Positions 1,620 to 64,000 are shown, counted from the first letter of the stretch. The stretch: 64,000 nucleotides of DNA from Candidatus Poribacteria bacterium (GCA_965232235.1 OZ246960.1:3948479-4012478); one strand, 5' to 3'. Numbers and translations: made by a program. Notes: generated by a model not told the origin, from the letters alone.

Positions 1620-1675
1620 TCTCTACATATACTAGTCATGTACTGATGGGCTTAAATTGGCACGTAGGAGGAATC

Positions 1676-2704: not shown

Positions 2705-2822
2705 TCAGTGAACATCCCGCCAGGGCGTCGAAGAACAATGGTCATATTCGCACGGTGACCTTGCACACACATGGATATTCTACGTGAAGTTGCGCATCGC
2801 CAGGGTGGATTGGGCATAAGTC

Positions 2823-3902
2823 ATGAAGGCAATAGAAGATAGTTCTTTCCAAGGATGGAACTGCGAAATGCGTTTACGCTTATTGAGAAGGATCTCTCAA
2901 CGCATAAGAAGTGCTTCCAGTGTGCTGATACTGGGCTTACTCATGACATTGGCAACCCCGGGATTTGGCGTGAGGGGCGAGATTGCCTATTACTCCCATA
3001 GAGAGGGCGAGTGGAGTTGGTTTATCCACGTCATAAATACGAATGGCTCGGAGCCAATCAAACTCGCGGAAGGCGGCACGCCGGCCTGGTCGCCGGATGG
3101 GAAGAAAATTGCATTTTCGTTTGGATTTAGAGGTTTTTTCGGCGATGTCGTCGGTATTTATGTCGTTGATGCCAACGGCGATAACCGGGTCAAACTCACC
3201 CGAAATCAGAACAATAGGAATCTGTTTCCGGCATGGTCGCCCGACGGAACGAAGATTGCCTTCTGGTCAAACCGCGAAGGTCAACCGGACATTTATGCGA
3301 TGAACGCCGACGGGATGAATCCGACTAACCTTACCCGCGACCCACACGACGAGGATAGACCGTCTTGGTCACCCGACGGGAAAAAAATCGCATTTGGAGC
3401 GCTGCTGCTCCCGCGCGGAGAAAAAAGCTTGTCGGACATCTTCGTAATGGATGCCGATGGTGGGAATCGCATCAACCTCACCCAAAACCCGGAAGTCGTG
3501 AATCAGTTTCCGGCGTGGTCGCCCGATGGAACGAGGATTGCGTATGAGGCGTCGCCCCACCCCAATCACTGGTTTCCGCCCTCCAACATTTATGTCATGA
3601 ATGCAGACGGTAGCCAGCCGGAGATGCTCACCGCAGGGAGGCGATTCGCGTCCGAAGGGCTTCCGACGTGGTCACCGTACGGAAGAAGGATTGCCTATCA
3701 TCGAAGGGAGCCGGACGGCAAGAATGACATCTTCGTCATTAACACTGACGGCACCGGTCTTCTGAACCTCACCAAATCTGAGTTTGTAGAGGAGCTAAGT
3801 CCTTCTTGGCGCCCCGCACCACTAGCAGTATCCGCTCGCGGGAGGTTGGCAACCAAATGGGGAGCGGTGAAACTGCACCGCGATTCCGCCTTAGGGGATT
3901 AA
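2823..3902 (+). CDS. secreted TolB-like PD40 beta-propeller repeat protein
   Basis: WSPDG repeats are present. It is a paralog of the 2..562 fragment. The tail is PLAVSARGRLATKWGAVKLHR. An alternative start at 2868 (MRLRLLRR... signal peptide) is possible. Confidence 0.8.
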   Translation: MKAIEDSSFQGWNCEMRLRLLRRISQRIRSASSVLILGLLMTLATPGFGVRGEIAYYSHREGEWSWFIHVINTNGSEPIKLAEGGTPAWSPDGKKIAFSFGFRGFFGDVVGIYVVDANGDNRVKLTRNQNNRNLFPAWSPDGTKIAFWSNREGQPDIYAMNADGMNPTNLTRDPHDEDRPSWSPDGKKIAFGALLLPRGEKSLSDIFVMDADGGNRINLTQNPEVVNQFPAWSPDGTRIAYEASPHPNHWFPPSNIYVMNADGSQPEMLTAGRRFASEGLPTWSPYGRRIAYHRREPDGKNDIFVINTDGTGLLNLTKSEFVEELSPSWRPAPLAVSARGRLATKWGAVKLHRDSALGD

Positions 3903-3958
3903 CCATGTCCTGTGCTCTTGTGCTTGAACGCATGAATCAATTTACGGAGGCAAGCGAG

Positions 3959-4783
3959 ATGAGAAGAGTGATACCAACCCTCGGCGCAGCGTTCTTCTTG
4001 GCAACTCAATGTATGGCGGCATTCGCCAATATAGTTCCCGGCGCCGTACTCCACCTTGATGCCCGTAACAACCCCAACCATCCCGACGCATGGACGAGCA
4101 TAGCCGAAGCTGGCGGACACGTGCCGCCTATGGATGCGCCGCCTGCACTGGAAGAAGGCCCTATCAAGATTCCGGATATCGGAATTGACGAGCCCAAGGC
4201 GAAGTATTATACCTCCCGGAAACGCGCAGAGATGTACGGTACCAAAGGCTTTGCTCCTCCCCTGGCGCTTGAAGACTGGACGATAGAGCTCCTCGTGCGG
4301 CGCAACGGGGACATGTTTCATGATGAACATCAACTCGCCGGTGTAAACGCGGTATGGGCGAGGCAACAAGGAATTCGGTTTGGTCTTGACGCTGCAAACA
4401 ACCTAAAAATGGTCATTTATGAAGCCGGTGTAGATAAACCGGTGTCGTCAAACATTATACTTGAGGAGGGCGTATGGAACTGGGTAGCATTTACCGGCAG
4501 AGACAAAGAGGAGATTTTGGCATACCACAACGGTAGAGAGGTCAACAAGCGCCCGGGCGTGGATCTTCAAAGAAATGTACAGATGAGGACAATCACAATC
4601 GGCGCTTCTACTCCTAGCGAAAAAGTTCGGAACTTCAACGGTTCAATCGCGCTTTTCCGTGTTTATGACAAGGTGCTGAGAGAGAATGAGATTATGCAAA
4701 ACATCAACGCCTGGTCCGGCTTAGCCGTTGACCCCGGCGCAAAACTGGCGACAACCTGGGGATCCCTGAAGGCATCGCATTAA
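3959..4783 (+). CDS. secreted LamG/concanavalin-like jelly-roll domain protein carrying the same C-terminal tail as the PD40 family
   Basis: GGAGG lies 8 nt upstream of ATG 3959. The signal peptide is MRRVIPTLGAAFFLATQCMAAFA. The LamG-type core reads WNWVAFTGRDKEEILAYHNGREV...NFNGSIALFRVYDKVLRENEI. The C-terminus is LAVDPGAKLATTWGSLKASH. The ORF-track start at 3806 overlaps the upstream gene and is rejected. Confidence 0.7.
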   Translation: MRRVIPTLGAAFFLATQCMAAFANIVPGAVLHLDARNNPNHPDAWTSIAEAGGHVPPMDAPPALEEGPIKIPDIGIDEPKAKYYTSRKRAEMYGTKGFAPPLALEDWTIELLVRRNGDMFHDEHQLAGVNAVWARQQGIRFGLDAANNLKMVIYEAGVDKPVSSNIILEEGVWNWVAFTGRDKEEILAYHNGREVNKRPGVDLQRNVQMRTITIGASTPSEKVRNFNGSIALFRVYDKVLRENEIMQNINAWSGLAVDPGAKLATTWGSLKASH

Positions 4784-4834
4784 GCCGCCGCTCGATTGCG
4801 TGCTTCAGAGCCTGTCCGAAACGTAGGAGGATTC

Positions 4835-5719
4835 ATGGTACTGAAACCTAACTGCATACTTCTGTTTTTCGCGGGATTTCTAGTTTCCTTGTTGAGTGAG
4901 ACGATGCTTGGGAGAACCCTCCTTGCCTCTCATCACAAACCGCAGATTGCATTCGGTTCAACGAGAGACGGGAATCCGGAAATATACGTAATGGATGCCG
5001 ATGGAAATAATCAGATACGACTAACGAACCATCCGGAAACGGACTTGGCTCCCTCTTGGTCGTCCGACGGGGTAAGAATTGCATTTTCCTCCAATAGAAA
5101 TGGCGGCAATTATCAAATCTACGTGATGGATAGCAATGGAAAAAACATAAGAAGGTTAACTGACGGAGATGATGATTGGAGTCCGGCATGGTCCCCAGAC
5201 GGCAAAAGGATTGCTTTTCACAGTAAGAGAGATGAAGAGAGAGCTAAGATATTCGTGGTTGCTCCCGATGGATCGAACCTGCGAAGACTGGCTGGGGACA
5301 TTCCATCGTCTGACATAGAAGCGGCGTGGTCGCCCGACAGTCAACGGATTGCGTTTGCGTCTTATCGAGGTGATAGATCCGCCGAAATCTACGTGATGGA
5401 CGCCGATGGCGCGAATCATCAGAGGCTGACACACGATGAAGCGACTGATCGCGAACCGGCATGGTCCGTGGTGGACGCTGACGGCAGCAAGAAGTTGTGG
5501 CGTTTTAAGGTCCGAGAGTTAGATGTCTCCGACATACCAGGGCGCAATGATACAGCGATCCATTTGATGACCGCCGATGGAGTGCACCTTAAGCGTTTGG
5601 GTAAGGAGGGAGACTACTCGCCCGATTGGTTTGACCCTGCGGCACTCGCCGTGTTTCCAGCAAGCAACCAGCTTACAATCTGGGGTAAACTCAAGAAGTC
5701 GGAATCCAATCCGCGCTAA
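4835..5719 (+). CDS. secreted TolB-like PD40 beta-propeller protein (paralog with an internal ~40-aa deletion)
   Basis: Start context is AGGAGGATTCATG. The first ~60 aa are nearly identical to the 5776 paralog. Relative to that paralog the stretch EPAWSSDGSKIVF...TWSPDGRSIAYVSGIPG is collapsed to EPAWSVVDADGSKKLWRFKVRELDVSDIPG. The tail AALAVFPASNQLTIWGKLKKSESNPR is retained. Confidence 0.8.
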   Translation: MVLKPNCILLFFAGFLVSLLSETMLGRTLLASHHKPQIAFGSTRDGNPEIYVMDADGNNQIRLTNHPETDLAPSWSSDGVRIAFSSNRNGGNYQIYVMDSNGKNIRRLTDGDDDWSPAWSPDGKRIAFHSKRDEERAKIFVVAPDGSNLRRLAGDIPSSDIEAAWSPDSQRIAFASYRGDRSAEIYVMDADGANHQRLTHDEATDREPAWSVVDADGSKKLWRFKVRELDVSDIPGRNDTAIHLMTADGVHLKRLGKEGDYSPDWFDPAALAVFPASNQLTIWGKLKKSESNPR

Positions 5720-5775
5720 TTTCTACATATACTTGCCTTATTCTAAAGGGCTTGAAATGGCAGCCAGGAGGATTC

Positions 5776-6825
5776 ATGGTACTGAAACCTAACTGCATAC
5801 TTCTGTTTTTCGCGGGATTTCTAGTTTCCTTGTTGAGTGAGACGATGATTGGGAGAACCCTCCTTGCCTCTCATCACAAACCGCAGATTGCATTCGGTTC
5901 AACGAGAGACGGGAATCCGGAAATATACGTAATGGATGCCGATGGAAATAATCAGATACGACTAACGAACCATCCGGAAACGGACTTGGCTCCTTCATGG
6001 TCGCCCGATGGGAGCAGAATCGCATTTTCCTCCAATAGAAACGGCGGCAGTTACCAAATCTACGTGATGGATAGCAATGGAAAAAACGTGAGAAGACTAA
6101 CCGCAGGAATTAACGACCGAAATCCCGCGTGGTCTCCGGACGGCCAAAAGATTGCTTTCACCGGTATTGGGGATGAAGAAATTGGACGTGAAAAGAGGAA
6201 AGCTAAAATATTCGTCGTTCATCCCGATGGAACGAATCCTCAAGAATTAGCTGGCCACATCCCTTCAACCGACCTGGACCCGGCATGGTCGCCCGACAGT
6301 CAACGGATTGCGTTTGCGTCGTATCGAGAAGGCATATCTGCTGAAATCTACGTGATGGACGCCGATGGCGCGAATCATCAGAGGCTGACACACGATGAAG
6401 CGACTGATCGCGAACCGGCATGGTCCTCTGACGGCAGCAAGATTGTCTTTAAGGCAGAGTTAGACGAGGATGATATTATCGCCGTGGTGGACGCTGACGG
6501 CAACAACCGAAAGAATCTGACCAAAGAAGTAATGAATGGCGTTTGGGAGTCGAAAACCGGTCCGACGTGGTCTCCTGACGGCAGGTCGATTGCATATGTC
6601 TCCGGAATACCGGGGCGTAATGATACGGCAATCCATTTGATGACCGTTGATGGAGTACATCTTAAGCGTCTGGGCAAATTGCACAACGGTGTAGACTATT
6701 CACCCGACTGGTTTGACCCTGCGGCACTCGCCGTGTCACCGGCGAACAGGCAGCACACAATTTGGGGTAAGCTCAAGAATTGGTCTGATGTGCCATTCAA
6801 TCCGGATGCGCATGAATCACATTGA
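5776..6825 (+). CDS. secreted TolB-like PD40 beta-propeller repeat protein
   Basis: Start context is AGGAGGATTCATG. It has a signal peptide and WSPDG repeats. The tail is AALAVSPANRQHTIWGKLKNW... Confidence 0.85.
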   Translation: MVLKPNCILLFFAGFLVSLLSETMIGRTLLASHHKPQIAFGSTRDGNPEIYVMDADGNNQIRLTNHPETDLAPSWSPDGSRIAFSSNRNGGSYQIYVMDSNGKNVRRLTAGINDRNPAWSPDGQKIAFTGIGDEEIGREKRKAKIFVVHPDGTNPQELAGHIPSTDLDPAWSPDSQRIAFASYREGISAEIYVMDADGANHQRLTHDEATDREPAWSSDGSKIVFKAELDEDDIIAVVDADGNNRKNLTKEVMNGVWESKTGPTWSPDGRSIAYVSGIPGRNDTAIHLMTVDGVHLKRLGKLHNGVDYSPDWFDPAALAVSPANRQHTIWGKLKNWSDVPFNPDAHESH

Positions 6826-6985
6826 AGCGATGCACTCATAATGGCTTAACTGGCAAAACCAAGATGTGTCTGCGATTTTGCTCGGAGAGGATTTTCTGTC
6901 TGAATCAATACTCAATCTGACAAGTAGTTGCGATGATGCAGATATACTTTAGAAGTGCGAAACTCAAGAAAGGGGATTCTGACCC

Positions 6986-7951
6986 GTGAATAATAGCAGC
7001 CCATTTTTAAGGCGATGGTTATCGTTACTGCTATTGGCGTTGATAGTTGCGTTAGATGGGGCAGCGCAGAGATTCGAACCGAGAATCCTGTTTGAATCGA
7101 ACCGCAACGGCAACTGGGATATCTACGCCATCGACGTAAACGGAAATAATCTCCTCCAACTTACCGACAATCCCACAGACGATCGCAGTCCTGCTTGCTC
7201 ACCGGATGGGAGAATGATTGCTTTCACGTCTATGCGACATGGTCCTCCGGACCTTTACTTGATGGACAGTAATGGCAATAACGTCGTCAGACTCACTAAT
7301 AGCAATTGGCGAGAGGGTTCCCCGTTTTGGTCGCCGGATGGCACTAAGATTGCTTTTACATCATACCGAGTTGACAACTCAGAGATCTACACAATGAACC
7401 CTGATGGAAATAATCTATTCAGGTTGACTCGGCACCAAATGTGGGAAAGCTCTCCAAGTTGGTCTCCGGATGGAAGCAAAATAGCCTTTGACTCCAATCC
7501 AGATGGGCCCTTTGGATCCGACCATATTTTTGTCATGGATGCAGATGGAACGAGGGTGCGCAACCTCACTCGCAACAAAGACATATCCAACAGTCGCCAT
7601 CCTGCGTGGTCGCCGGATGGAAGCTGGATCGCGTTCGATGCCTGGCGTGACAGCAACGACATTTACGTGATGACTGCAAATGGGAAAAGACTCAGGAAGC
7701 TTACGGAAGGGAAGGGAAACAACCGGTCACCATCCTATTCGTCGGACGGAACAAGAATCATCTTTGTCTCAGACCGTGACGGAAATCATGATATTTATAT
7801 AATGGACACCAACGGACGAGGGGTGGTCAAACTCACGAAAACCCAACCCGGTGTTGAGAACAGATCTCCTCACTGGTTGCCGGAATTTCTTGCAGTGTCT
7901 CCACACGAGAGGACACCCACTTTCTGGGGAGCAATCAAAAGTAAACAGTAA
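6986..7951 (+). CDS. secreted TolB-like PD40 beta-propeller repeat protein (divergent subfamily)
   Basis: GTG start with AAAGGGGA upstream. The signal peptide is LSLLLLALIVALDGAAQ. It has WSPDG(T/S)KIAF repeats. The tail is FLAVSPHERTPTFWGAIKSKQ. Confidence 0.85.
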   Translation: MNNSSPFLRRWLSLLLLALIVALDGAAQRFEPRILFESNRNGNWDIYAIDVNGNNLLQLTDNPTDDRSPACSPDGRMIAFTSMRHGPPDLYLMDSNGNNVVRLTNSNWREGSPFWSPDGTKIAFTSYRVDNSEIYTMNPDGNNLFRLTRHQMWESSPSWSPDGSKIAFDSNPDGPFGSDHIFVMDADGTRVRNLTRNKDISNSRHPAWSPDGSWIAFDAWRDSNDIYVMTANGKRLRKLTEGKGNNRSPSYSSDGTRIIFVSDRDGNHDIYIMDTNGRGVVKLTKTQPGVENRSPHWLPEFLAVSPHERTPTFWGAIKSKQ

Positions 7952-8103
7952 TCCGTGTTGATCGGTAGCGTCCCATCATCCCTATCGGAATGATTCATTC
8001 AGCAAGCAACACTTTTGTACCGCAAACTGTTAGTTTGCGATCACAATCCATCAGCGGTACACGTTCATTTTTCGCTCTATGACTGGCTTTCCGAGAGTGT
8101 TAC

Positions 8104-8860
8104 TTGAGAGAATGGAAGCAGGTCGTAATGAGGTCTTTCGGACTATTCGAACGAATGCTGCACCGGAATGCTTTTTGTCGAAGCCTATTCGTAATAGGGA
8201 TAGGTTGTATCCTTGCGTTTGTTGAATCGGGCCAAGCCATTGACGCGAAAATTGCCTTCGGTTCAGACCGTGACGGCAACTCCGAAATCTACGTCATGGA
8301 ATCTGACGGGACAAACCCTGTCAGGCTGACCCAGAATCCGGCAGTTGACGCATATCCCGCTTGGTCGCCCGATGGGACAAAGATTGCCTTTACGTCTACC
8401 CGACGCAACGGATTCACTTGGGAAATCTATGTCATGAACACAGACGGGACAAAGCCGGTGCGCCGACGACAAACAACGGACGCTTTCCTGCATACGATGA
8501 ATCGCCTTCATGGTCGCTGGATGGGAAGCGAATCGTGTTTCAAGCGTGGAACGAAGGCAACCATGGCATCCACGTAATGAACGCCGACGGTGGCAATGTG
8601 CTACGGCTCACACGCCATTTCGCGTGGGACGCTTATCCAGCTTGGTCACCGGATGGATGAGCAATTGCATTTACATCACTCCGAAATTGGGCGTGTGAAG
8701 AAATTTCCTGATAAATCCTGATGGTACCAATCTCACTCAAATTACCAAATCTGTAGGTAGACACATGGCGAGAAGCGCAGCTTGGAGCCCTGCTCCGCAA
8801 CTAGTTTCTCCAAAAGAAAAGTTGGCTACCCAATTTGGGCACGTCAAACAGAGCCGATAA
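8104..8860 (+). pseudogene. frameshifted PD40 beta-propeller gene (pseudogene or assembly indel)
   Basis: PD40 homology is split over at least three frames (8104..8577, 8361..8660, and a third frame giving ...PDGTNLTQITKSVGRHMARSAAWSPAPQLVSPKEKLATQFGHVKQSR* ending at 8860). The C-terminal tail motif is still recognisable. Confidence 0.6.
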
Positions 8861-8872
8861 CCCGCAGGTATA

Positions 8873-17880: not shown

Positions 17881-18366
17881 GTGCTATCGGAGACGGTCGT
17901 GAATAAACGAAAATCAGTGTATCTTGCAAATCCCTACGGTTTCTCGGAACAACAGCGGTGCACATTGCTCCCAGCCCTGATTGAGGCATTGGAAGCAATC
18001 GGCTTGGAAGTATGGGAGCCATTCGCGCGGAACAACAATGAAGATACCTCGGTGTCCGGTTGGGCGTACCGAATCGGGCAGGCGGACAAGCGCGATGTGG
18101 TAGAGACGGATGCGATTTTCGCTGTTGTAAACGGTGTTCCGCCCGATGAGGGGGTTATGGTGGAATTGGGGATTGCGATCGCGCTTGGGAAACCCACGTT
18201 CCTGTTTCGAGACGACTTTCGACGCGCCGCCGATTCTGACGAATACCCGCTTAACCTGATGGTTTTCGCCGGACTGCCTCGTCTCGGATGGGAGCGATAC
18301 TACTTCAAATCAATAACTGAGATTTCATCTCCCGAAAAAGCACTCGTATCTTGGGCGCAGGAGTAA
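17881..18366 (+). CDS. nucleoside 2-deoxyribosyltransferase (NDT/Rcl-like) family protein
   Basis: Motifs are SVYLANPYGF and DEGVMVELGIAIALGKPTFLF, the latter being the D-x-G...E-x-G-x-A-x-A-x-GKP catalytic-Glu signature. Alternative GTG start at 17899 with a GGAG RBS. Confidence 0.7.
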   Translation: MLSETVVNKRKSVYLANPYGFSEQQRCTLLPALIEALEAIGLEVWEPFARNNNEDTSVSGWAYRIGQADKRDVVETDAIFAVVNGVPPDEGVMVELGIAIALGKPTFLFRDDFRRAADSDEYPLNLMVFAGLPRLGWERYYFKSITEISSPEKALVSWAQE

Positions 18367-54201: not shown

Positions 54202-54690
54202 CTAATTTCGTGCGTGTTCATAGCGAACGAGTTCTAGTCCCCCGCATGTATCGGCGCGGCTCCGCCCAACTTCAATGAACCCGCATGCACGGTACATTCG
54301 ATGGGCAGGTTGAAAAAACGGGTGATTTGCAGTTGTCACCTTGACGATAAGAGCTTCGGACGACAACTCATCAAGCGCCATTTGGACCTGTTCCTTCCCA
54401 TACCCTTTGCCACTGTGAAGCGGCGCAATGCAGTTGTGACCAATCGATCCAACGTTAACTCCTTCCAAGAACCAAGATACAAACCCAATCGGCTCATCTG
54501 CAAGGGTGCTTATCGCTACGTTTCCGCTCGAATCTGTGTCATCAAAAAGGTTGTCGTCGGTCTTCTGCCAATTAGCCTCGAATTCGTGTCTGCAATCGGG
54601 CTTTGCATCCAACAAACTCGAATAACTTTCGCAGAGTAATTGGTAGACGAGATCTTTGTCAAATAGGTCAATCGGTTTGAATTTAATCAT
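54202..54690 (-). CDS. GNAT family N-acetyltransferase
   Basis: Motif A reads IAPLHSGKGYGKEQVQMAL. The C-terminal YRACGF segment is present. Confidence 0.7.
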   Translation of the reverse strand: MIKFKPIDLFDKDLVYQLLCESYSSLLDAKPDCRHEFEANWQKTDDNLFDDTDSSGNVAISTLADEPIGFVSWFLEGVNVGSIGHNCIAPLHSGKGYGKEQVQMALDELSSEALIVKVTTANHPFFQPAHRMYRACGFIEVGRSRADTCGGLELVRYEHARN

Positions 54691-54714
54691 TTGAAATGGA
54701 ACCGTGGCGGACTT

Positions 54715-55767
54715 CTATCGCGATGCCTCCCACCGGTCCCGGTGCATAGCCAGTTTTTCTTGGAAATCCTGCCGATCCAAGACCTCTCTATTGACAATAT
54801 TATCCGGAATTTCACCTCGTGAAACCTGAATGACTCGTTGGCAGTTAGTGCGACCAATGTCTTGGTAGCATTCGTCGGTCATGGCAATGGCGTGCGGCGT
54901 GAGTATGACGTTATCGAGTGCAATCAGCGGATCGTCTACGTCAACCGGTTCCTCTTCAAACACATCAATTCCAGCCCCTCGAATGCGCTTCGATTTCAGC
55001 GCTTCGGTCAACGCTGGCTGATCGACTATGGGACCGCGTGCAGTATTGATGATGAAGGCACTGGATTTCATAAGTCCGAATTCCCGCGCACCGATTAGTC
55101 CACGAGTCTCGTCGGTGAGCGGACAGCAGACACACACGTAATCTGATTCTACCAGCAGGGACCGCAAGTCGGTAACTTCTACGTTCAACGTCTTGGCAAG
55201 TTCGATTGAAGCGTAGGGATCATACGCCAAGAAACGCATGCCGAACGGCTGAAGCAGGCGAAACAGTTCGCCTCCAATATTGCCAATTCCGACAGAACCT
55301 AGCGTACGCCCGCCAAGTTCCACGCCCATTTGTATTGTATCTCGCCATTCTCCGGCCCGAACGGCTCTATCCCTCGCGATCACGTGCTTCGACAGCGCAA
55401 ACATCAAAGCGATAATCCCTTCCGCCACGGGGTGCCGCATACCGAGCGGTGTAATCGTTATCATCACATTTGCTTCGGTTGCCGCTCGCAGATCGAAGTT
55501 ATCGTAACCCACGCCATGTCTTGCGATCAGGGTCAGACGGTCTGCGCCTTCAAACGTCTCGGTCGTGTAAACACCGCTAAACGCGATGAACGCGTCCAGC
55601 CCACGCATCTCCCCGGGGGGAACGAAGGGCCGATCGGTTTTGGTGAAGTGATGTTCGATATGCGGCTCTTTCTCAAGTAGATCAAGTCCAATGTCCTTGA
55701 AGCGCAATCTGCCCCCAGAGTCCAAAAAGCCGGGAGCCAACCCGACACGGAATTTTTCCGTTTCCAT
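54715..55767 (-). CDS. D-isomer-specific 2-hydroxyacid dehydrogenase family protein
   Basis: The NAD site is GGRTLGSVGIGNIGGE. The catalytic region is TARGPIVDQ...GAGIDVFEEEP. The start is moved to METEKF with GGAGAG 8 nt upstream. Confidence 0.85.
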   Translation of the reverse strand: METEKFRVGLAPGFLDSGGRLRFKDIGLDLLEKEPHIEHHFTKTDRPFVPPGEMRGLDAFIAFSGVYTTETFEGADRLTLIARHGVGYDNFDLRAATEANVMITITPLGMRHPVAEGIIALMFALSKHVIARDRAVRAGEWRDTIQMGVELGGRTLGSVGIGNIGGELFRLLQPFGMRFLAYDPYASIELAKTLNVEVTDLRSLLVESDYVCVCCPLTDETRGLIGAREFGLMKSSAFIINTARGPIVDQPALTEALKSKRIRGAGIDVFEEEPVDVDDPLIALDNVILTPHAIAMTDECYQDIGRTNCQRVIQVSRGEIPDNIVNREVLDRQDFQEKLAMHRDRWEASR

Positions 55768-55811
55768 AGCCGCTTCTCTCCATGCAAGCACGACAGTTTA
55801 ACTGCGGTCAA

Positions 55812-56714
55812 CTACAGTATTTCCCGTACAAACGTGTACACTCCTCTCATCCAGAAGGCGTAATAGATTCCGTTTGCGTAGCAGAAATACATCGTCTTTA
55901 GCGTGATGACAACAACGAGAACCGCGGAGCCAGCTGCTATAAGGAGTATGTCCTGTAGCTGCATCTTCAGAGATCTCAAATACGTACGCTGGTTTCCGAT
56001 TATATCGGGTGAGAAGCCTCGACTTTCTACAGCTTCCCCGAGATGTGTGGCGCGACGAATATTGTTGGTCAAGATCGGGCGGAAACTGTTGAGCACCCCC
56101 CGAATGATGTGCAGTGGGTTGAATTGGAAGTAACGAAATCCTCTTAATCGCTGCGATCGAATTACATTTACCGATTCAGCCGCTATCAACGGGATATAGT
56201 GCAAGCTAGTGTTCACCATGAACGCTAGGCTATATGGCACACGCAACTTCACAAAAGCGAGTAGCAGGTCGCGTGGTTGAGTTGACCAGACGATGAAGCA
56301 CCCGATTGTCAGGGTTGTATTGAATCGTAACGACTGAATCGCGCCGTGTAGGAGACCTTCGCGATACACTCGAACGCCTCCGGTCATGCTACCAATTATT
56401 GGAACATCGTGCCCTACGAGGGTGAAGAGTACTGTGCGCGGAAACGTATTGTAGAATATGGCTTGACTGTATATCAATCCCCACGTGGCAAAAAGGATGA
56501 ACACAATGAGCAGTCGGTATTGGCGCCAAGATGGAAAAGAGAGCACAATCATTCCGATGCTAATCAGGAAGCAGAACAGTAGCGATGTCGCGCTATCAAG
56601 CATGACAACAAGAACTCCGAAGAACATCAGCATGAGGATTTTGGTGCGCGGATCAAGGTGTGTCATCGACATGTCATATGTGGCTGGCTGTCTGCTATAG
56701 TCAATTCCATTCAC
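55812..56714 (-). CDS. ecfT: ECF-type transporter transmembrane (T) component, CbiQ-like
   Basis: CbiQ/EcfT-like polytopic protein (PRTKILMLMFFGVLVV...). The start codon is uncertain (M15 or M17 are alternatives). Confidence 0.75.
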   Translation of the reverse strand: MNGIDYSRQPATYDMSMTHLDPRTKILMLMFFGVLVVMLDSATSLLFCFLISIGMIVLSFPSWRQYRLLIVFILFATWGLIYSQAIFYNTFPRTVLFTLVGHDVPIIGSMTGGVRVYREGLLHGAIQSLRFNTTLTIGCFIVWSTQPRDLLLAFVKLRVPYSLAFMVNTSLHYIPLIAAESVNVIRSQRLRGFRYFQFNPLHIIRGVLNSFRPILTNNIRRATHLGEAVESRGFSPDIIGNQRTYLRSLKMQLQDILLIAAGSAVLVVVITLKTMYFCYANGIYYAFWMRGVYTFVREIL

Positions 56715-56780
56715 ATTTACACAAATTTCGTAGGCGCGGTTTCCAACCGCACCTGCCGCCGTGTATAAAGATTCTTGGTT

Positions 56781-58442
56781 TTACGCTAACCGCCATTGCA
56801 ATTGAGTTTTTGGAGGTGCAATAAGCGAAGCATTCGCTAGAAGATCCGGTTTTGAAAAGGCCTCATTTGGTACTCCATCGAATATCAGTTCGCCTTGACG
56901 TAGAAACAACACTCGCTTCGCGTATTGTAGAGTAAGTTGGGCGTCATGAGTACAAAAAATCAGCGTTTTATTTTGCCTTTCGACAGTATCGCAAAGTACT
57001 CCCATCAACTGTCCGAGATGACTAAAATCCTGTCCCGCAGTAGGTTCGTCAAGCAGGAGAATGTTCGGAAGAAGCGAGTAGGCTGCGGCGGTTGCCGTCC
57101 GTTGTCGTTGTCCCCGCGAGAGGGAGTAGGGCGCTTCATTACCTATATTGTCCAAATCGAATGCTGACATGACTTCTTTGGTTCGATGCTGTATTTCACA
57201 ACGAGACAGCTTCAGGTTTTTAGGGCCGAAAGCGACTTCATCGTTTACTGTTTCCGCTTGCAGCAGGAGATCGGGATCCTGAAAGACAATTCCGATTTTT
57301 CCCGCCAGGTTGCGAAGTTTCAGGCGCTCTCTTCCTATGTCTGTAATGAGAATCCGTCCGAACGTGGGACGGAGTAGCCCCAGAATTGACAAAAGCAGCG
57401 TCGTTTTCCCCGATCCATTTGCACCCATAATAGCGGTAACTTCGCCCTCACCAATTTCAAATGAGACCTTGCTTAAAGCGGGAATCTCAGTGCGTGGATA
57501 TTGAAACGTGAGATTTTCGACGCTGGCAAGTAGATTCCGCGAATCTTGATGAGGCTGTTCGTGGCTAACCAAGTTTGAAAGGTTTGATGTCGGGGCAGAT
57601 ATGTTTGGAAATCTGTCGGCTTGTAGAAATAATTGCGCTGCTTGATCGACGGTAAGCGGGCGTTCAGGTAGTCCCAACTGCTCTGACAATTCAGCCAAAT
57701 CAGGAATCTCCACACCCAAGTTACGATAAGGTTTGAGGTCTGAAAAGGCTCGATTCACGGGCGAATCGAGGGCGATTTCAGCATGACTCATCAGCCAAAC
57801 CCGACTACACAATGGGGCAATTTCAGAGACACGATGGGCGGCGATTACAATCGTTATCCCATTCTGGCGGTTCAGTTGACCGAGGATTTCCAGAATATCG
57901 CACGTGCTTGTCGGGTCGAGATGGCTCGTTGGCTCATCTAGCAGGAGAACGCGTGGTTTCATCGCGCACAAGCAAGCGAGGGAAACCCGTTGCTTCTCAC
58001 CGCCGGAGAGTGTCGAAATCGCGCGCCCTCGAAATCCGGTTGACAATTTGACCAGTGTCAACGCGGCGTTGATTCGAACGTCAATCTGAAAGGGAGGAAT
58101 GCCAAGATTTTCTAAACCAAATGCTATTTCGTCTTCAACAACGGTGCAGAAAAACTGGTCATCGGGATTCTGAAATAGCAGACCTACGTGTTGACTGATT
58201 ACTGCTAGCGACTGGTCGGCAAGGATTTTGCCATCAATGGCGACATTGCCAGAAAGCACGCCGCCTGACGCGTGCGGGATCAAACCATTCAATGTTCGTA
58301 AGAGGGTGGATTTGCCACATCCGGTGGGGCCCGTCAAGAGAATGAACTCGCCACATTCAACTTCGGCGTTTACCCTCTTCAGACTTGGTTCACTACGACT
58401 TGGATAGGTAAAACTGACATCTCTTATTTCAATTTGGCTCAT
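56781..58442 (-). CDS. ECF-type transporter ATPase with duplicated ABC domains (EcfA1-EcfA2 fusion, CbiO-like)
   Basis: Two Walker A sites are present (GPTGCGKST and GANGSGKTT). Two signature/Walker B sets are present (LSGGEKQRV/LLLDEPTS and LSRGQRQRT/LLLDEPTA). Confidence 0.85.
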   Translation of the reverse strand: MSQIEIRDVSFTYPSRSEPSLKRVNAEVECGEFILLTGPTGCGKSTLLRTLNGLIPHASGGVLSGNVAIDGKILADQSLAVISQHVGLLFQNPDDQFFCTVVEDEIAFGLENLGIPPFQIDVRINAALTLVKLSTGFRGRAISTLSGGEKQRVSLACLCAMKPRVLLLDEPTSHLDPTSTCDILEILGQLNRQNGITIVIAAHRVSEIAPLCSRVWLMSHAEIALDSPVNRAFSDLKPYRNLGVEIPDLAELSEQLGLPERPLTVDQAAQLFLQADRFPNISAPTSNLSNLVSHEQPHQDSRNLLASVENLTFQYPRTEIPALSKVSFEIGEGEVTAIMGANGSGKTTLLLSILGLLRPTFGRILITDIGRERLKLRNLAGKIGIVFQDPDLLLQAETVNDEVAFGPKNLKLSRCEIQHRTKEVMSAFDLDNIGNEAPYSLSRGQRQRTATAAAYSLLPNILLLDEPTAGQDFSHLGQLMGVLCDTVERQNKTLIFCTHDAQLTLQYAKRVLFLRQGELIFDGVPNEAFSKPDLLANASLIAPPKTQLQWRLA

Positions 58443-58451
58443 CCATTCAAC

Positions 58452-60443
58452 CTAATCCAGACCTTCAAGCTGAAATGGGAGAGTACCAAAGAGTTCTTCG
58501 AGATTTTGTTTTATCGTAATTCGAAAGGTATCAATTGATTCGGTGACGTGATGTCTAAAATCGTGGTGGACACATTCATAATGTCTATGCACACGGCGCA
58601 TTAGATCCCGAACGTAATTCTGCATCTCAAGTATACGTTCGCTATGCACAGTCGTAAGTCGAGACCCTGCTTCCTTGAACGCCCGAAGTTCTGCCTCCAA
58701 GTATGTGATGAATACCGATTTCTGGAAGGACTCAAGATTGTCTTTCACCCCGCGTCTGAAATCTCCGTGCACGGTTTCATACTCGGTACGTACCCTAGCC
58801 AAGAGTGTTTGAACATGTGCGCCAATTTCACCGATGCGATGTTTTCGTGACTCTTCGGAATTAGACACTCGGTGTCGGAAAGTCTCTAACTCCAATTTTA
58901 GGTACTGCTTGAAACTATCTACCGCGATTTGCTCGCTTGTGACCTTCTCGTGGTGGTAGCCCAAAATTGCAAACAGGACCGCGTCGGGCAGCCGCCCTGG
59001 ATGGCGCATGAGGACTCGAATCAGAAACCAGAGATAGGTAGGCCCCTGTTTCGGCGAGAGCAATTGCCGCCTGATTGACCTCATCAATGCGAGGATTTCC
59101 ATCTTACCGATGCGGACAGTTCGTTTCTTGGGACGCCAGTGCTCAAAAAGGGTCAAACATCGCTCAAAATAGCTATTGAGACTGGGTTCGTAGAGCACTC
59201 TCAAGATCCGTTTGTATTCTTCAATGAGCACCTCACGGTCAAGTTCCGGGACGAAATTCAACTCAACACTGACATTGTTTCCGCTTGATTCGCCGAGCAG
59301 TCTCCCTTCCGTTTCAAGACGATTGTAAAGATTTGTCTTTTTCAATGCGGTGAGAAGCCCCGCCATCGCCCTAGGAATTCCAGCTTTTTGGATAAAATCA
59401 ATGTGCGACTGAAATTCTTTGTCTCCGTCAAGGCCAACAATAAATCCTGCCGTGGCTTCGAGACCTGCTTCCTGTATCTTTCTAATGGCGCGCAGCAAAT
59501 AGCTCTCAGCCGACTCATCCTTACTGGTATTTTGTTGCTTAACTGTTTTCTGTAAGGCCTCGTCATTCGGACTCTCGATTCCCAAGAACGTCATGATGAA
59601 ACCTGCTTCAGCCATCCCGTCTAGCATACCGGGAATATCTACGAGGTTCACACTCGTCTCGGTGTAGAGCTGAAAGGGGTAATCCCTGGTTTCCTGCCAT
59701 TCGGTGATTGCTGGCAGAAGCCGCATGGCATCACGCTTGTTGCCGATAAAATTATCGTCAACAAGAAACATTGCGCCGCGCCAACCTAGGTGATGAAGCA
59801 TATTAAATTCCGCTAACACCTGTTCATTCGTTTTGGTTCGAGGCACCCGCCCGAATAACTTCGTGATGTCGCAGAACTCACAATCAAAAGGGCACCCTCG
59901 CGAGAACTGCAGCGCCATTGAGCCGTAATGCTCTAGATTCAGGAGCTCGTATCTCGGAAGCGGTGTCTTCGTGACATCCGGCTTTCTCGGTTCCGTATAT
60001 ACATCCTTGGCGTTGCCGTTCTGAAGGTCCGTCAGGAAATCATCGAAGCTCTCTTCCACTTCTCCAAAAAGAAAATGATCTACCCAACCATCACGCTCTT
60101 GCATCGCTCGTTCAATCTCGTCGCGATAGGAGGTCGGGTGTGGGCCACCAGAAACAATAGGCGTATTTGCACGATTACAGCGCTCAACGACCTCAAACAA
60201 TGATTCTTTTTGAACTACCATCGTGGATGTAAAAACAACATCTGCCCACTCAAGATCTGCGTCAAGCAGAGGCGTGACATTCATATCGACGACTTTGAGG
60301 CGATAATCTTTGGAAAACAACCCGGCGACGGTCAGCAATCCGAGCGGGGGCATATTGGATTTTCGGCCAACAAAATGTAAAGCGTAGTTGTAACCCCAAT
60401 AGGAGGGAGGAAACTCCGGATAAACCAGTAGGGCATTAGGCAT
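58452..60443 (-). CDS. B12-binding domain radical SAM protein with a C-terminal duplicated helical module (paralog 2)
   Basis: The N-terminal cobalamin-binding Rossmann region is LLVYPEFPPSYWGY...GLLTVAG. The radical SAM cluster is SRGCPFDCEFC. About 190 aa of C-terminal internal repeats follow. Confidence 0.85.
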   Translation of the reverse strand: MPNALLVYPEFPPSYWGYNYALHFVGRKSNMPPLGLLTVAGLFSKDYRLKVVDMNVTPLLDADLEWADVVFTSTMVVQKESLFEVVERCNRANTPIVSGGPHPTSYRDEIERAMQERDGWVDHFLFGEVEESFDDFLTDLQNGNAKDVYTEPRKPDVTKTPLPRYELLNLEHYGSMALQFSRGCPFDCEFCDITKLFGRVPRTKTNEQVLAEFNMLHHLGWRGAMFLVDDNFIGNKRDAMRLLPAITEWQETRDYPFQLYTETSVNLVDIPGMLDGMAEAGFIMTFLGIESPNDEALQKTVKQQNTSKDESAESYLLRAIRKIQEAGLEATAGFIVGLDGDKEFQSHIDFIQKAGIPRAMAGLLTALKKTNLYNRLETEGRLLGESSGNNVSVELNFVPELDREVLIEEYKRILRVLYEPSLNSYFERCLTLFEHWRPKKRTVRIGKMEILALMRSIRRQLLSPKQGPTYLWFLIRVLMRHPGRLPDAVLFAILGYHHEKVTSEQIAVDSFKQYLKLELETFRHRVSNSEESRKHRIGEIGAHVQTLLARVRTEYETVHGDFRRGVKDNLESFQKSVFITYLEAELRAFKEAGSRLTTVHSERILEMQNYVRDLMRRVHRHYECVHHDFRHHVTESIDTFRITIKQNLEELFGTLPFQLEGLD

Positions 60444-60590
60444 GTGAGTGTATGTCCGTTCTGAGGGATGGAGAATAATCGGGATCTGTTACGATGGCAA
60501 GTCTCGTCACAATTGCTGCAATCAGCACATGACGTGAGCCTTTTGTGTAATCCCGGTCATGAGGAATCTTTAGACGATCCCCAATCTTGT

Positions 60591-62564
60591 CTAGTTGAGA
60601 CCTTCCATTTGCGGGATTGTCGCATGAGCAAGATTCGACTTCACGGCATCGCGAAATGTCTCCAATGAGTCATTCACATTGTGCCTGAGATCTGTGTGCA
60701 GGTGTTCGTACTGTGCGTGTACGCGGTCCCATAGTTTGTGAACATATCCCTTGATTTCTCCAACGCGGTGACTTCGAACTTTGGCAAACAGCGAAATTGT
60801 TGCTCTAAGTGCCTCTAGTTCGGCTTTCAGGTACTCATTGAATACCGATGCCTGGAATGCGTCAAGTCTGTCTTGTACGCTATATCTGAAATCTTCATGG
60901 ATATCTTCATACGCGGCACGGGCTCGCGCAAGCAACTCGCGGACATGGAGGCTAACTTCTCCAATCCGATCGCCCTGCGATTGGACGAGTTGAGCCGCAG
61001 TATCCTTGAAGGTGTTGAATTCCGCTTCAAGGTATTGTTTAAAGTCGTCGACTGCTACGGTCTGTCTCGTAATTTTCTCAAAGTGGTAACCCATGATGGC
61101 GAGTCGCATTGCTTCAGGGAGCAGGGGCAGATGGCGCCTTAAAACTCTAACCAAATATCGGGCGTAGGCAGGCCCTTGTCGTGAAAACAACTGCCGCCTA
61201 ATGGATTTTATGAAAGCCATTAACTCCATTTTTCCGATTTTTCTCACGGTGTGGTCTGTGGGCTTCAGATGTTCCAGCATGGTGAGGCATCTCTCGAAGT
61301 AGTTGCTTAGAGTCGGATCGTAGAGGGTAGATACCACGCGCCGATATTCGGAGATAAGATGATCTCGCGGTAACTCCGGTTCGAAATTCAACATAACATC
61401 CGTGTTGTTTCCGGTGGATTCCTTGAGTAACCGACCTTCCTTCTCGAGCCGATGATACAGATTCGTCCCTTTTAGCGCAGTCAACAGGCCTGCCATCGCC
61501 ATGGGGATCCCGGCGTCCTGGATAAACCGAATATGCGAATCAAACTCTGTGTCGCCGTCCAGTCCGATGATGAATCCTCCAGTCACTTCCATGCCGCATT
61601 CCTGGATTTTCCGTATTGCCTGGAGCATATAACTCCCTGCATCCTCCTCTTTGCTTGTGTTTTGTTTCTTAACCGTTTTCTCAAGTGCCTCGTCATTGGG
61701 GCTTTCAATTCCCAAGAACACCATGTTGAATCCGGCGTCACTCATGGCATCCAGCATGTCAGGAATCTCGACGAGGTTAACGCTGGCTTCGGTGTACAAC
61801 GAAAACGGGAATTGTCTTTCTTCTTGCCATTTGGAAACTTCGGGAAGTAGCCGCATGGCGTCTCGCTTATTCCCAATAAAGTTGTCATCAACTACAAAAA
61901 GCGACCCGTTCCAACCGAGACGGTACAACATCTCAAATTCGGTCAGCATCTGTTCGTTCGATTTCGTCCGTGGAACTCGCCCGAATAGCTTTGTGATGTC
62001 GCAAAATTCACAATCAAACGGACAGCCACGCGAGAATTGCAGTGCCATTGACCCGTACGCTTTCAAATCAATCAGGTCATACCTCGGTGAAGGGGTCTTT
62101 GTGACATCCGGTTTTTTTGTTTCCCGATAGACCTCCTTGGCTGCACCGCTCTCAAAGTCTGTTAGAAAATCCTCAAAAAAGTCTTCAACTTCGCCGAAAA
62201 GAAAGTGGTCTACGGTTCCGTCAACTTCTTCTCTAATATTGTCGTGATAGGAGGTTGGGTGCGGACCGCCGGCCACGATGGGAATATTTGCCGCGTTACA
62301 TCGTCCGACTACCTCGTAAAGTGAATCCTTCTGAACGATCATCGTGGATGTGAAAACCGCATCTGCCCACTCCAGATCGGCGTCCAACAACGGGGTCACG
62401 TTCATATCAACCACTTTGAGTTCATAATCCTTTGGGAACATGCCTGCAATTGTCAGCAGTCCGAGAGGTGGCATGGCGGACTTCTTATTTACAAAGTCAA
62501 GGGCAAATTTGTATCCCCAGTACGAAGGGGGAAATTCCGGATAAACAAATAGCGCGTTTCGCAT
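60591..62564 (-). CDS. B12-binding domain radical SAM protein (paralog 1, ~65% identical to paralog 2)
   Basis: It has the same architecture (SRGCPFDCEFC). The start is set at ATG (MRNALFVYPE) with GGAG 6 nt upstream. The ORF-track start at 62576 is a TTG that overlaps the RBS. Confidence 0.85.
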   Translation of the reverse strand: MRNALFVYPEFPPSYWGYKFALDFVNKKSAMPPLGLLTIAGMFPKDYELKVVDMNVTPLLDADLEWADAVFTSTMIVQKDSLYEVVGRCNAANIPIVAGGPHPTSYHDNIREEVDGTVDHFLFGEVEDFFEDFLTDFESGAAKEVYRETKKPDVTKTPSPRYDLIDLKAYGSMALQFSRGCPFDCEFCDITKLFGRVPRTKSNEQMLTEFEMLYRLGWNGSLFVVDDNFIGNKRDAMRLLPEVSKWQEERQFPFSLYTEASVNLVEIPDMLDAMSDAGFNMVFLGIESPNDEALEKTVKKQNTSKEEDAGSYMLQAIRKIQECGMEVTGGFIIGLDGDTEFDSHIRFIQDAGIPMAMAGLLTALKGTNLYHRLEKEGRLLKESTGNNTDVMLNFEPELPRDHLISEYRRVVSTLYDPTLSNYFERCLTMLEHLKPTDHTVRKIGKMELMAFIKSIRRQLFSRQGPAYARYLVRVLRRHLPLLPEAMRLAIMGYHFEKITRQTVAVDDFKQYLEAEFNTFKDTAAQLVQSQGDRIGEVSLHVRELLARARAAYEDIHEDFRYSVQDRLDAFQASVFNEYLKAELEALRATISLFAKVRSHRVGEIKGYVHKLWDRVHAQYEHLHTDLRHNVNDSLETFRDAVKSNLAHATIPQMEGLN

Positions 62565-62655
62565 ATCTTTCTCCAATTAGGTCAAAACCACTAATTCAGT
62601 TACTATTCAACGGACGCAATAACTCACAATCAATCCCTGTTAATAAAGTCCCAAC

Positions 62656-63213
62656 TTATTCTCTAGTCACACCGGTTTCAAACTGTTTGCCGAGCTGTTT
62701 CTTTGCCTCTTTTAGGCGGCTGTATACAGTGCTTACTGGGATACGCAGCCGCTGACCGATCTCGGATGCCGAATACCCATGCATGTAGAATTCGTGGACA
62801 ACTTGGCGGTACATCGGCGAAAGCGTATCTATAGCACACCGAACTTTCTCAATAAGCCCGTGGTGAAAAGTCGTCAATGTAGCTGCTTCTTCAGAATGCC
62901 GCGACTTTAATTCGTCGGTGAGTCTCGAGATTTTACGCCGTTGACACTTCAGCCAGTCCTTTGCTGTATTTCGCGCAATCTTGGCAATCCAACCTTCAAG
63001 GTGGTACGGCGGTTTTAACTTCCCGATTGCTTGATAGACTTTAATCCATGTTTCCTGAGCCAAATCCTCAATGTCATGCTTATTTTTCGTGAAGACGCGA
63101 ATATTTCGCACCACATGCTGCTGATAACGTTTTACAAGCTGCTGAAATGCGTCATTACTCCGCTGGGCATTCTGGATTAATGGGTCAATACAACGATTAT
63201 TCGCGGAATTCAT
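62656..63213 (-). CDS. ECF-subfamily RNA polymerase sigma-70 factor
   Basis: Region 2 reads DLAQETWIKVYQ. The region 4 HTH reads YSASEIGQRLRIPVSTVYSRLKEAKKQL. Confidence 0.85.
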   Translation of the reverse strand: MNSANNRCIDPLIQNAQRSNDAFQQLVKRYQQHVVRNIRVFTKNKHDIEDLAQETWIKVYQAIGKLKPPYHLEGWIAKIARNTAKDWLKCQRRKISRLTDELKSRHSEEAATLTTFHHGLIEKVRCAIDTLSPMYRQVVHEFYMHGYSASEIGQRLRIPVSTVYSRLKEAKKQLGKQFETGVTRE

Positions 63214-63520
63214 ATCTATGGGCTTTCCCTGGCGCCGCTGCGGATTACATCAAGACGCACCCCTTATACTACCTTAAACGACATTGTAACCGAGAATTAG
63301 AGGTAACGTCCAAATTTTTTTGAGCACGACTCCACGTAAAGGTACGCAGAGAATTAACAACGAAATGCACAACTTCCGAATCAGATTCCTGCTGCTGTAC
63401 ACGACTATACTTACATGGTATCACAACTGACGTTTTTTCTCAAGACAAATTTCTTGTTGGCACTTGGTCAATGTGTTAGAATTCTTACACAAGTTGTGCC
63501 GCATAAGGAGACAAGTGAAG

Positions 63521-64000
63521 ATGCGTCGCTGCACCACGAAATTAACGCATCATACGAAACAATTACAATTGGGCGTTTTATACGGGTGTCGTGTGCAATT
63601 TCTCACGAGTTGCCTACTTGGTTTGCTGCTAATTTTCATGCAGAATGCCGCGCAATGTGATGCGACCAAGCCTGTTCTTCCTGATAATAAGAATACATAT
63701 CTGATTCGGCAAGTTTCTTTCCAAGGGAATACGAACCTCGATCGCAAGGCGTTGTCAAGGATATTCGGCGTACATGCTGGAAAACCCTATCATCGTGAAA
63801 AAGTAATGAAAGGATTGACGAGAATCATGGACGAATACAGAAAAGCTGGATTTGTGTTCGCATCAATCAATCCCGAAGTTGTACCAGTGTCCGCTGATCA
63901 GGTACATGTCCGAATACAGATAGACGAGGGCGATCAAATTCGAACGGGACAGATTACCATGAGTGGGAATAGGTTATTTTCCACCTCGGATCTGCAGCGC
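63521..64000 (+). CDS. bamA: outer membrane protein assembly factor BamA, N-terminal POTRA region (3' end outside the window)
   Basis: Open frame to the window edge; it is not in the ORF track because there is no stop. AAGGAG lies upstream of ATG 63521. A signal-like LLGLLLIFMQNAAQ precedes the POTRA1 pattern YLIRQVSFQGNTNLDRKALSRIFGVHAGKPYHREKVMKGLTRIMDEYRKAGFVFASI. Confidence 0.6.
   Translation, partial: MRRCTTKLTHHTKQLQLGVLYGCRVQFLTSCLLGLLLIFMQNAAQCDATKPVLPDNKNTYLIRQVSFQGNTNLDRKALSRIFGVHAGKPYHREKVMKGLTRIMDEYRKAGFVFASINPEVVPVSADQVHVRIQIDEGDQIRTGQITMSGNRLFSTSDLQR

Follow-up and report, generated by a model that had tools for sequence, protein, structure and literature searches.

Gene content of the locus

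The window analyzed here, a stretch of 64,000 nt from Candidatus Poribacteria bacterium, carries at positions 54202-63213 a cluster of genes, all on the minus strand, that encode two paralogous radical S-adenosylmethionine (rSAM) proteins, rSAM1 and rSAM2, and the ATPase (EcfA-A') and membrane (EcfT) components of an energy-coupling factor (ECF) transporter. We find that throughout Poribacteria the gene for an rSAM protein of this family is directly followed by the gene for the fused EcfA-A' ATPase, and that the rSAM proteins of this clade contain a duplicated helical tail and have the SwfC proteins of sponge symbionts as their nearest outgroup. The explanation that we put first, tentatively and a little short of an even chance, is that the two genes form a core operon in which a lipid-type, B12-binding rSAM protein, a SwfC paralogue acting on a hydrophobic chain, and an ECF energizing ATPase are linked because they are required jointly.

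Seven co-oriented minus-strand open reading frames (ORFs) were predicted at this locus, and the ORF listing together with the Pfam and NCBIfam scans agrees with both the gene order and the domains assigned in the original prediction. The features, including the two tail repeats of rSAM1 and the divergent gene at the edge of the window, are the following.

54202-54690, minus strand: GNAT acetyltransferase, 162 aa (PF00583)
54715-55791, minus strand: D-isomer-specific 2-hydroxyacid dehydrogenase (2HADH; PF02826, E 3.5e-59; PF00389)
55812-56714, minus strand: EcfT/CbiQ-type T component (Pfam CbiQ PF02361, E 1e-24)
56781-58442, minus strand: fused EcfA-A' ATPase, 553 aa (PF00005 twice; best NCBIfam matches ECF_ATPase_1 and ECF_ATPase_2)
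58452-60443, minus strand: rSAM2, 663 aa (B12-binding, Radical_SAM and DUF4070 domains, architecture as in rSAM1)
60591-62564 (ORF as listed, 60591-62576), minus strand: rSAM1, 657 aa (B12-binding, Radical_SAM and DUF4070 domains, duplicated helical tail)
60843-61043 (aa 508-574) and 60642-60842 (aa 575-641), minus strand: rSAM1 tail repeats, delineated by self-alignment, column conservation, an AlphaFold2 (AF2) model and a hidden Markov model (HMM) of the repeat unit
62656-63213, minus strand: extracytoplasmic-function-type sigma-70 factor, 185 aa (Pfam/NCBIfam)
63521-64000, plus strand: N-terminus of a BamA/Omp85-like gene with POTRA, recognized from its translation, transcribed away from the cluster and cut off by the edge of the window

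With the starts as listed, the intergenic gaps range from 9 to about 150 nt, and the ATPase gene starts 9 nt past the stop codon of rSAM2. Alignments with homologues point to likelier starts for three of the genes, namely, ATG 62564, with GGAG upstream, for rSAM1; ATG 56672 for EcfT, which would yield a protein of 286 aa (inferred from the orthologue in locus L002); and ATG 55767 for 2HADH. The tight co-orientation is consistent with transcription of the seven genes as a single predicted unit.

Conservation across Poribacteria

One genome per species was scanned, 220 relatives in all, and the seven window proteins were compared by tblastn with the best 80 loci, all of which belong to Candidatus Poribacteria. 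Orthologues of rSAM1 are 66-92% identical across these loci. In each of the 79 loci that extend far enough for adjacency to be scored, the rSAM gene is followed by the gene for the fused ATPase, with a gap of at most 28 nt in 74 of them (median, 9 nt); in the remaining five, the gap is 150-1018 nt, and the two genes are still adjacent and co-oriented.

The gene for EcfT adjoins the ATPase gene in 32 loci. In 41 others, none was found in the downstream sequence, which extends for at least 3 kb, and in 36 of them for 8 kb or more. Genes for secreted proteins, occupying 2-4 kb, separate the ATPase and EcfT genes in L073 and L034. In the L049 genome, the EcfT gene is solitary, at a distance of about 700 kb from the genes for the rSAM and the ATPase; its product retains 75-78% identity with the query EcfT, and it still adjoins the ancestral downstream neighbours, encoding MoCF_biosynth and VWA domain proteins; the same layout occurs at a second solitary EcfT locus, L094. 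On the other side of the cluster, a divergent BamA-like gene is located upstream in 44 of the 80 loci, with Pfam calls for both POTRA and Omp85 in L087 and L088, and judging by this distribution, the rSAM gene had it as its upstream neighbour ancestrally. From the flanks across loci, we infer that the ancestral layout was a divergent BamA-like gene, followed by rSAM, EcfA-A' and EcfT, and then by the convergent MoCF and VWA genes.

By this comparison, the conserved unit comprises three genes (rSAM, EcfA-A' and EcfT), of which rSAM and EcfA-A' alone appear to be inseparable. Conservation thus holds phylum-wide for the rSAM and EcfA-A' genes, along with EcfT, and fails for the other four genes.

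Several features of individual loci are worth recording. Insertions are concentrated in and around the interval between the ATPase and EcfT genes (13771-17386 in L073, 14416-19644 in L022 and 14102-16541 in L094), and among the inserts at this hot spot are genes for secreted proteins of the FGE-sulfatase-like, LRR and dockerin types, IS605/TnpB-like genes and other transposases. In the clade in which EcfT is no longer located beside the rSAM and ATPase genes (13839-16741 in L087 and 13775-18505 in L088), these two are followed by genes for two to three paralogous small proteins resembling outer-membrane beta-barrels, small proteins with two transmembrane (TM) segments, YidD and a secreted protein that looks LolA-like by eye but has no recorded match in Pfam; with the divergent BamA-like gene included, these genes make up an envelope-biogenesis neighbourhood. 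L015 (OZ244587.1) contains, between the rSAM and ATPase genes, an independent second rSAM gene (12841-14505) with an apparently truncated product of 574 aa that resembles rSAM1-type sequences more than it does the rSAM2 of the window.

Accessory genes of the window lineage

Orthologues of rSAM2, 2HADH, GNAT and the sigma factor are confined, among the 80 loci, to the closest lineage (L002-L008) and vary within it. Those of rSAM2 were detected in L002-L008 only, those of 2HADH (72-87% identity) in L004-L008 only, and those of GNAT in L005-L007 only; the sigma gene is present in L003 and L005-L007, and absent in L002, L004, L008 and all other loci. L002, with 92% identity in rSAM1, has the genes for the two rSAMs, the ATPase and EcfT and none for sigma, 2HADH or GNAT; there, EcfT is followed by HtpG, and BamA lies directly upstream of the cluster. 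In L004, a different gene occupies the sigma position. The sigma gene is thus best described as an insertion peculiar to this lineage, placed between the BamA-like gene and rSAM1, and sigma, 2HADH and GNAT all appear to be recent local additions outside the conserved system. Because the accessory genes are both confined to this lineage and variable within it, the seven-gene cluster is, on the distribution of its genes, a mosaic.

In the original prediction, all seven genes formed one pathway, in which a lipid or secondary metabolite would be methylated, reduced and acetylated under the control of the sigma factor. The tight co-orientation, with gaps of 9-150 nt, is in line with such a pathway, as are the recurrence of the full seven-gene arrangement in L005-L007 and the absence of a convincing terminator between any of the seven genes. 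We nevertheless regard it as very improbable. Sigma, 2HADH and GNAT are missing in L002 despite the 92% identity of its rSAM1, sigma is missing also in L004 and L008, and none of the three accompanies the cluster in the 70-odd remaining poribacterial loci. The 2HADH-like genes that lie 4-8 kb away in other clades encode paralogues only 30-37% identical to the window protein and are located on the opposite strand. Dispersal in the relatives, which was to count against the pathway, was thus found for four of the seven genes. Furthermore, the sigma factor does not appear to belong to a sigma/anti-sigma regulatory pair of the extracytoplasmic function type that controls the cluster: no anti-sigma gene adjoins it, the gap of about 91 nt between sigma and rSAM1 contains no gene, and the sigma gene itself is missing at most of the orthologous loci.

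No ECF-sigma-type promoter motif common to the upstream regions of sigma and rSAM1 was evident by eye in the intergenic alignments, which do show conservation. A terminator-like hairpin located after EcfT (55746-55729) falls inside the conserved coding sequence of 2HADH and was dismissed as probably due to chance. The region of about 300 nt between sigma and the divergent BamA-like gene (63214-63520) is about 80% conserved among five sigma-bearing loci; its invariant long blocks include AACAAGAAATTTGTCTTGAG and ACAATGTCGTTTA, and it has no Rfam match.

The rSAM proteins and their relationship to SwfC

The paralogy of the two rSAM proteins, noticed originally, is borne out by 65% identity from end to end, with the CxxxCxxC motif kept in both. 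PF02310 (E 6e-13 and 6e-9) and PF04055 were detected in the two proteins, which places both in class B by domain composition. In rSAM1, the motif corresponds to C181/C185/C188 and is invariant among 41 sequences. In a neighbour-joining (NJ) tree, rSAM1 nests among the single-copy poribacterial orthologues and rSAM2 forms a separate long branch; given this placement, rSAM1 appears to be the enzyme conserved across the phylum, and rSAM2 a divergent, lineage-specific copy.

The curated rSAM equivalog models of NCBIfam yielded 40-69 bits against cut-offs of 250-750, the best being TIGR04013, PhpK, ApyD, BchE, HpnJ, HpnR, the ladderane rSAM and MgmA. MgmA (9ccb) was also the sole sequence match in the PDB, and a structure search with the AF2 model retrieved AprD4 as the top fold neighbour, along with MgmA and MiaB/RimO. 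Proteins with the B12-binding and radical SAM domains include enzymes other than methylases as well as proteins that do not use cobalamin; AprD4, for example, is a dehydratase. The rSAM proteins of this locus are accordingly described here as B12-domain radical SAM proteins, and cobalamin use and methyl transfer as predictions only.

An exhaustive profile search for the rSAM family retrieved 20,592 representatives at E <=1e-3 and 1,138 at E <=1e-30. Outside the poribacterial cluster, the nearest representatives have 45-59% identity and occur in varied contexts. One type of context recurs in P0272/P0122, the rSAM of which is 54% identical over aa 1-581, and in P0412 (Ca. Palauibacter soopunensis), where the rSAM gene lies directly upstream of genes for a KS-AT-DH-ER-KR polyketide synthase (PKS), an acyl carrier protein (ACP) and an 838-aa reductase-sulfotransferase, and is preceded by genes for the synthesis of 3'-phosphoadenosine-5'-phosphosulfate. 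The swf operon of sponge symbionts, which encodes a monomodular PKS or fatty acid synthase (FAS), includes SwfC, a B12-binding rSAM protein predicted to methylate the alkyl product of SwfA and SwfB (PMC3908369). Because the gene content matches the published context of SwfC (PMC3908369), the cluster of the P0272/P0412 type is identified, at the level of gene content, as the swf operon and its rSAM protein as SwfC.

In the NJ tree, proteins of the SwfC type are the nearest outgroup of the poribacterial rSAM clade. Because SwfC belongs to the PKS/FAS clusters of the swf type, this position suggests, by analogy, a long-chain alkyl or acyl substrate for the ECF-linked rSAM as well, so that the lipid or secondary-metabolite flavour ascribed to the locus at the outset is retained for the enzyme.

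The swf-type genes themselves occur in additional settings. In L084 and L095 (Ca. Palauibacter and relatives), SwfC, SwfA, ACP and SwfB are preceded by CysD/CysN-adenylylsulfate kinase, a permease and an RND pump. SwfC is 75-95% identical across matches named Gemmatimonadota, Chloroflexota, Aminicenantes and Bacteroidota, which suggests horizontal spread among sponge symbionts.

The duplicated helical tail

The C-terminal tail of rSAM1 consists of two 67-aa repeats (aa 508-574 and 575-641), the ungapped alignment of which scores 123 compared with 25 +/- 4.9 for 300 shuffled sequences (z = 20); the corresponding repeat in rSAM2 has z = 15. The duplicated C-terminal helical module described from the window alone is therefore real in both proteins. 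In the AF2 model, each 67-aa unit is a helical hairpin, with a long helix and a shorter one; the predicted local distance difference test (pLDDT) values of the tail blocks are about 75-92, and the tail modelled alone has a pLDDT of 80. Column conservation reveals the pattern F..YL..E...F / R..E / R....Y...H.DF in each repeat.

The HMM of the 67-aa unit detects two copies in the poribacterial clade only, whereas several relatives, about 590 aa in length, yield one weak copy each; by this measure, the tail duplication coincides with the ECF-linked clade. The structure search returned no significant match for the tail, and no membrane segment was predicted in it.

Two other leads on the tail were dropped. 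A ferritin-like di-iron bundle, with E...ExxH occurring twice, was considered; the Glu of 'ExxH' varies, being E, D or N in repeat 1 and E or A in repeat 2, and the conserved H.D is placed after the second helix of every hairpin. The tails of P0126, P0127 and P0129 resemble the repeat by eye and are not supported by the unit HMM.

The ECF module

Both halves of the fused ATPase contain complete sets of Walker A/B, catalytic Glu and H-loop motifs. The first nucleotide-binding domain (NBD) contains GPTGCGKS, the canonical signature LSGGE and LLLDE, and the second one contains GANGSGKT, the variant signature LSRGQ, LLLDE and THD. The protein matches the EcfA1/A2 and CbiO structures in the PDB over the full domain length, and its scores of 413.8 for TIGR04520 and 402.7 for TIGR04521 (cut-offs, 315 and 330) each sum two domains. 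In EcfT, both Arg motifs of the coupling helices are present (QRLRGF, aa 188, and VESRGF, aa 229), and its sequence matches in the PDB are the EcfT chains of group II ECF transporters and nothing else. A metagenome scan for relatives of EcfT returned one short locus.

As noted in the original prediction, the module comes without a substrate-capture (S) subunit. None is encoded at the locus, where the gaps are too short, and crude TM prediction combined with Pfam revealed none among the multi-TM proteins across the 64-kb window, which are BPD_transp_1, ABC_membrane and DUF805 proteins and two proteins without a family. No S component was called beside the module in the related loci, where the search covered the neighbourhood rather than whole genomes, so that an unlinked S component is possible. 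There are no cob or cbi genes in the rest of the window. The score of EcfT with the CbiQ equivalog TIGR02454 is 70.5, below the cut-off of 111.8; on this score and the absence of CbiM and CbiN, the module is not a CbiMNQO system. Rather, it looks like an ordinary energizer, the S components of which, if any, would be encoded elsewhere.

No cobalamin riboswitch or other Rfam family was detected in the window at the gathering threshold, and none matched between 53500 and 64000 when the threshold was relaxed to E values up to 1.

Functional linkage of the rSAM and ECF genes

The reading that we favour can be spelled out as follows. The rSAM and the fused EcfA-A' ATPase would be co-expressed and probably translationally coupled, with EcfT ancestrally next in the operon; the lineage of the window would then have elaborated this core with an rSAM paralogue and with the added sigma, 2HADH and GNAT genes. 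The reaction of the rSAM would be a radical one, most likely a cobalamin-dependent C-methylation, and its substrate a long-chain alkyl or acyl compound, lipid- or polyketide-like. EcfA-A' and EcfT would constitute a canonical energizer of the group II kind that serves S components encoded elsewhere, and the ATPase would be tied to the rSAM by joint need, most simply the supply of a corrinoid or cobalt to a cobalamin-dependent enzyme. The tie may reflect such a supply, or it may be merely a shared promoter.

A number of observations speak against this reading. A promoterless ATPase gene would remain fixed to the gene upstream of it regardless of function. Flanking synteny is generally stable in the phylum, both upstream (the BamA-like gene in 44 of the 80 loci) and downstream of EcfT (MoCF and VWA), and adjacency alone is therefore weaker evidence of functional coupling. 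The sampled rSAM homologues outside Poribacteria have no ECF neighbours, and neither an S component nor an ATPase is encoded beside the solitary EcfT in the L049 genome or in L094. With respect to cofactor supply, no CbiM or CbiN gene accompanies the module, and the Rfam search of six diverse poribacterial loci yielded tRNAs only and no cobalamin riboswitch; with no S component, CbiM/N or riboswitch, this link is therefore without direct support. As for the enzyme, methyltransferase activity and cobalamin binding are predictions, with the equivalog models far under their cut-offs, and the full-length AF2 model of rSAM1 has a mean pLDDT of 71.5, with moderate confidence in the catalytic core.

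The main competing explanation is that the rSAM and the ECF module are unrelated and that the ATPase gene hitch-hikes: lacking a promoter of its own, it would be silenced if separated from the rSAM gene. EcfA-A' and EcfT would then be the general energizer of vitamin uptake in the phylum, of the group II type, and EcfT, which could gain a promoter, would be free to drift. Group II modules reportedly occur in unrelated operons elsewhere, for instance, with ribosomal-protein and truA genes in Firmicutes. The gap of 6-28 nt between the rSAM and ATPase genes leaves no space for a promoter, and the phylum-wide synteny of the flanks, the existence of the rSAM family elsewhere without ECF neighbours and the lack of a riboswitch or S gene connecting the two all fit this account. 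It is harder to reconcile with the fate of the obligate partners, the ATPase and EcfT, which were split or interrupted repeatedly, through insertions in two loci (L034, L073) and relocation over about 700 kb in the genome of L049, whereas the rSAM and the ATPase were never parted in 79 genomes, or with the coincidence of the tail duplication with the ECF-linked clade. On balance, we consider hitch-hiking unlikely, although it is to be taken seriously.

A joint requirement could also take a more direct form, with the ATPase and EcfT working with the rSAM itself rather than with a conventional S component. The tail might dock on the fused ATPase with its pseudo-symmetry; alternatively, the hydrophobic substrate of the rSAM might be extracted, flipped or imported by the module, as part of a salvage or envelope-lipid system. 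The invariant juxtaposition of the rSAM and ATPase genes is compatible with such a machine, and so are the two tail repeats, present in the ECF-linked clade only, alongside an ATPase that is a fusion of two NBDs, the lack of an S gene at the three kinds of locus examined, and the envelope-related surroundings (the BamA-like gene and, in places, the small outer-membrane barrels, YidD and the by-eye LolA-like protein that lacks a Pfam hit). Against it, we know of no precedent for an S-independent ECF module, the coupling motifs of EcfT are normal with nothing unusual about them, the tail has neither a significant structural match nor a predicted membrane segment, and S components of group II systems are usually unlinked, so that their absence nearby is to be expected. 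A direct partnership of this kind appears improbable, and marginally more so the specific version in which the tail docks on the two ATPase halves and ATP hydrolysis delivers or removes a membrane lipid substrate or a corrinoid independently of any S component. Were that version true, the module would be an enzyme-coupled ECF machine and not a vitamin importer.

Poribacteria are uncultivated, abundant symbionts of sponges, and their lipid and polyketide chemistry, including the sup and swf clusters, is largely unassigned. A phylum-wide rSAM paralogous to SwfC would be a candidate for a phylum-specific modification of a lipid or alkyl chain and possibly a biomarker. An ATPase that is never parted from a B12-type enzyme, while its membrane partner is, makes an unusual genomic pattern, which would reflect the logic of cofactor supply to cobalamin-dependent radical enzymes or else hint at a non-canonical job of an ECF module. 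The literature search found no link of Poribacteria or of cobalamin-dependent rSAM enzymes with energy-coupling factor genes, and nothing specific on Poribacteria and cobalamin. By that literature, the phylum-wide coupling of the rSAM and EcfA-A' genes, the clade-specific tail duplication and the recognition of the rSAM as a SwfC paralogue are new; all parts of the locus belong to known kinds. To treat the seven genes as one pathway would be over-reading; as the cluster is a mosaic, experiments should address the three-gene core, which is the proper target.

Other gene clusters in the window

Two other regions of the window, both on the plus strand, stand out by their gene content. Positions 59-9883 contain nine tandem paralogues encoding PD40/TolB-like beta-propellers of 157-359 aa, most of them with a hydrophobic segment at the N-terminus, among which a Laminin_G_3 gene is located (3806-4783); this is a striking local expansion of a gene family. 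The region 12685-18366 encodes a 648-aa protein with tRNA-guanine transglycosylase and DUF5591 domains, an archaeosine-synthase-like architecture that is mainly archaeal. Next come genes for a GNAT protein, for two proteins outside any Pfam family with five and seven TM segments, and for a histidine phosphatase and a nucleoside 2-deoxyribosyltransferase. These genes may form a 7-deazaguanine or nucleoside-modification cluster.

Comparison with known systems

Among known systems, SwfC is the closest to the rSAM proteins of the window, with which it shares the B12-binding, Radical_SAM and DUF4070 domains, the CxxxCxxC motif and the sponge symbiont habitat. SwfC is a protein of about 585-596 aa, the gene of which immediately precedes those for the SwfA PKS and the SwfB reductase-sulfotransferase, and has one 67-aa helical unit, recognized by eye in P0272, where the unit HMM has no match, compared with two units in the window proteins. 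The genes of the latter precede one for an ECF ATPase and have no PKS gene in their vicinity, and the swf context was found neither in the window nor in any of the 80 loci. The reaction of SwfC is itself that of a methyltransferase by prediction only.

The lipid-modifying class B enzymes HpnP/HpnR and HpnJ, and BchE, have the same architecture of B12-binding, Radical_SAM and DUF4070 domains, a combination that was previously used as the HpnP signature. The window rSAM has weak profile similarity to HpnR (E 9e-15), HpnJ (2e-15) and BchE (2e-16), but is not a member of these families, with 54-60 bits against cut-offs of 480-650. Neither hopanoid nor bacteriochlorophyll genes lie nearby, and the helical tail repeats are extra to these systems.

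The group I transporters CbiMNQO and NikMNQO resemble the window module in their Pfam CbiQ and cbiO-type matches and in the thematic link to cobalamin. The window module differs in lacking CbiM/CbiN or NikM/N and a B12 riboswitch, and in a CbiQ score below the cut-off.

The module is most similar to the group II ECF transporters (4HUQ/4HZU, 5D3M), with which it shares the Arg motifs of EcfT, ATPase halves of the EcfA1/A2 type and an operon without an S gene. Unlike in those transporters, the two ATPases of the window are fused in one polypeptide, the genes for the A and T components lie apart in about half of Poribacteria, and the module is tied transcriptionally, so far as the gene arrangement indicates, to the gene of an rSAM protein.

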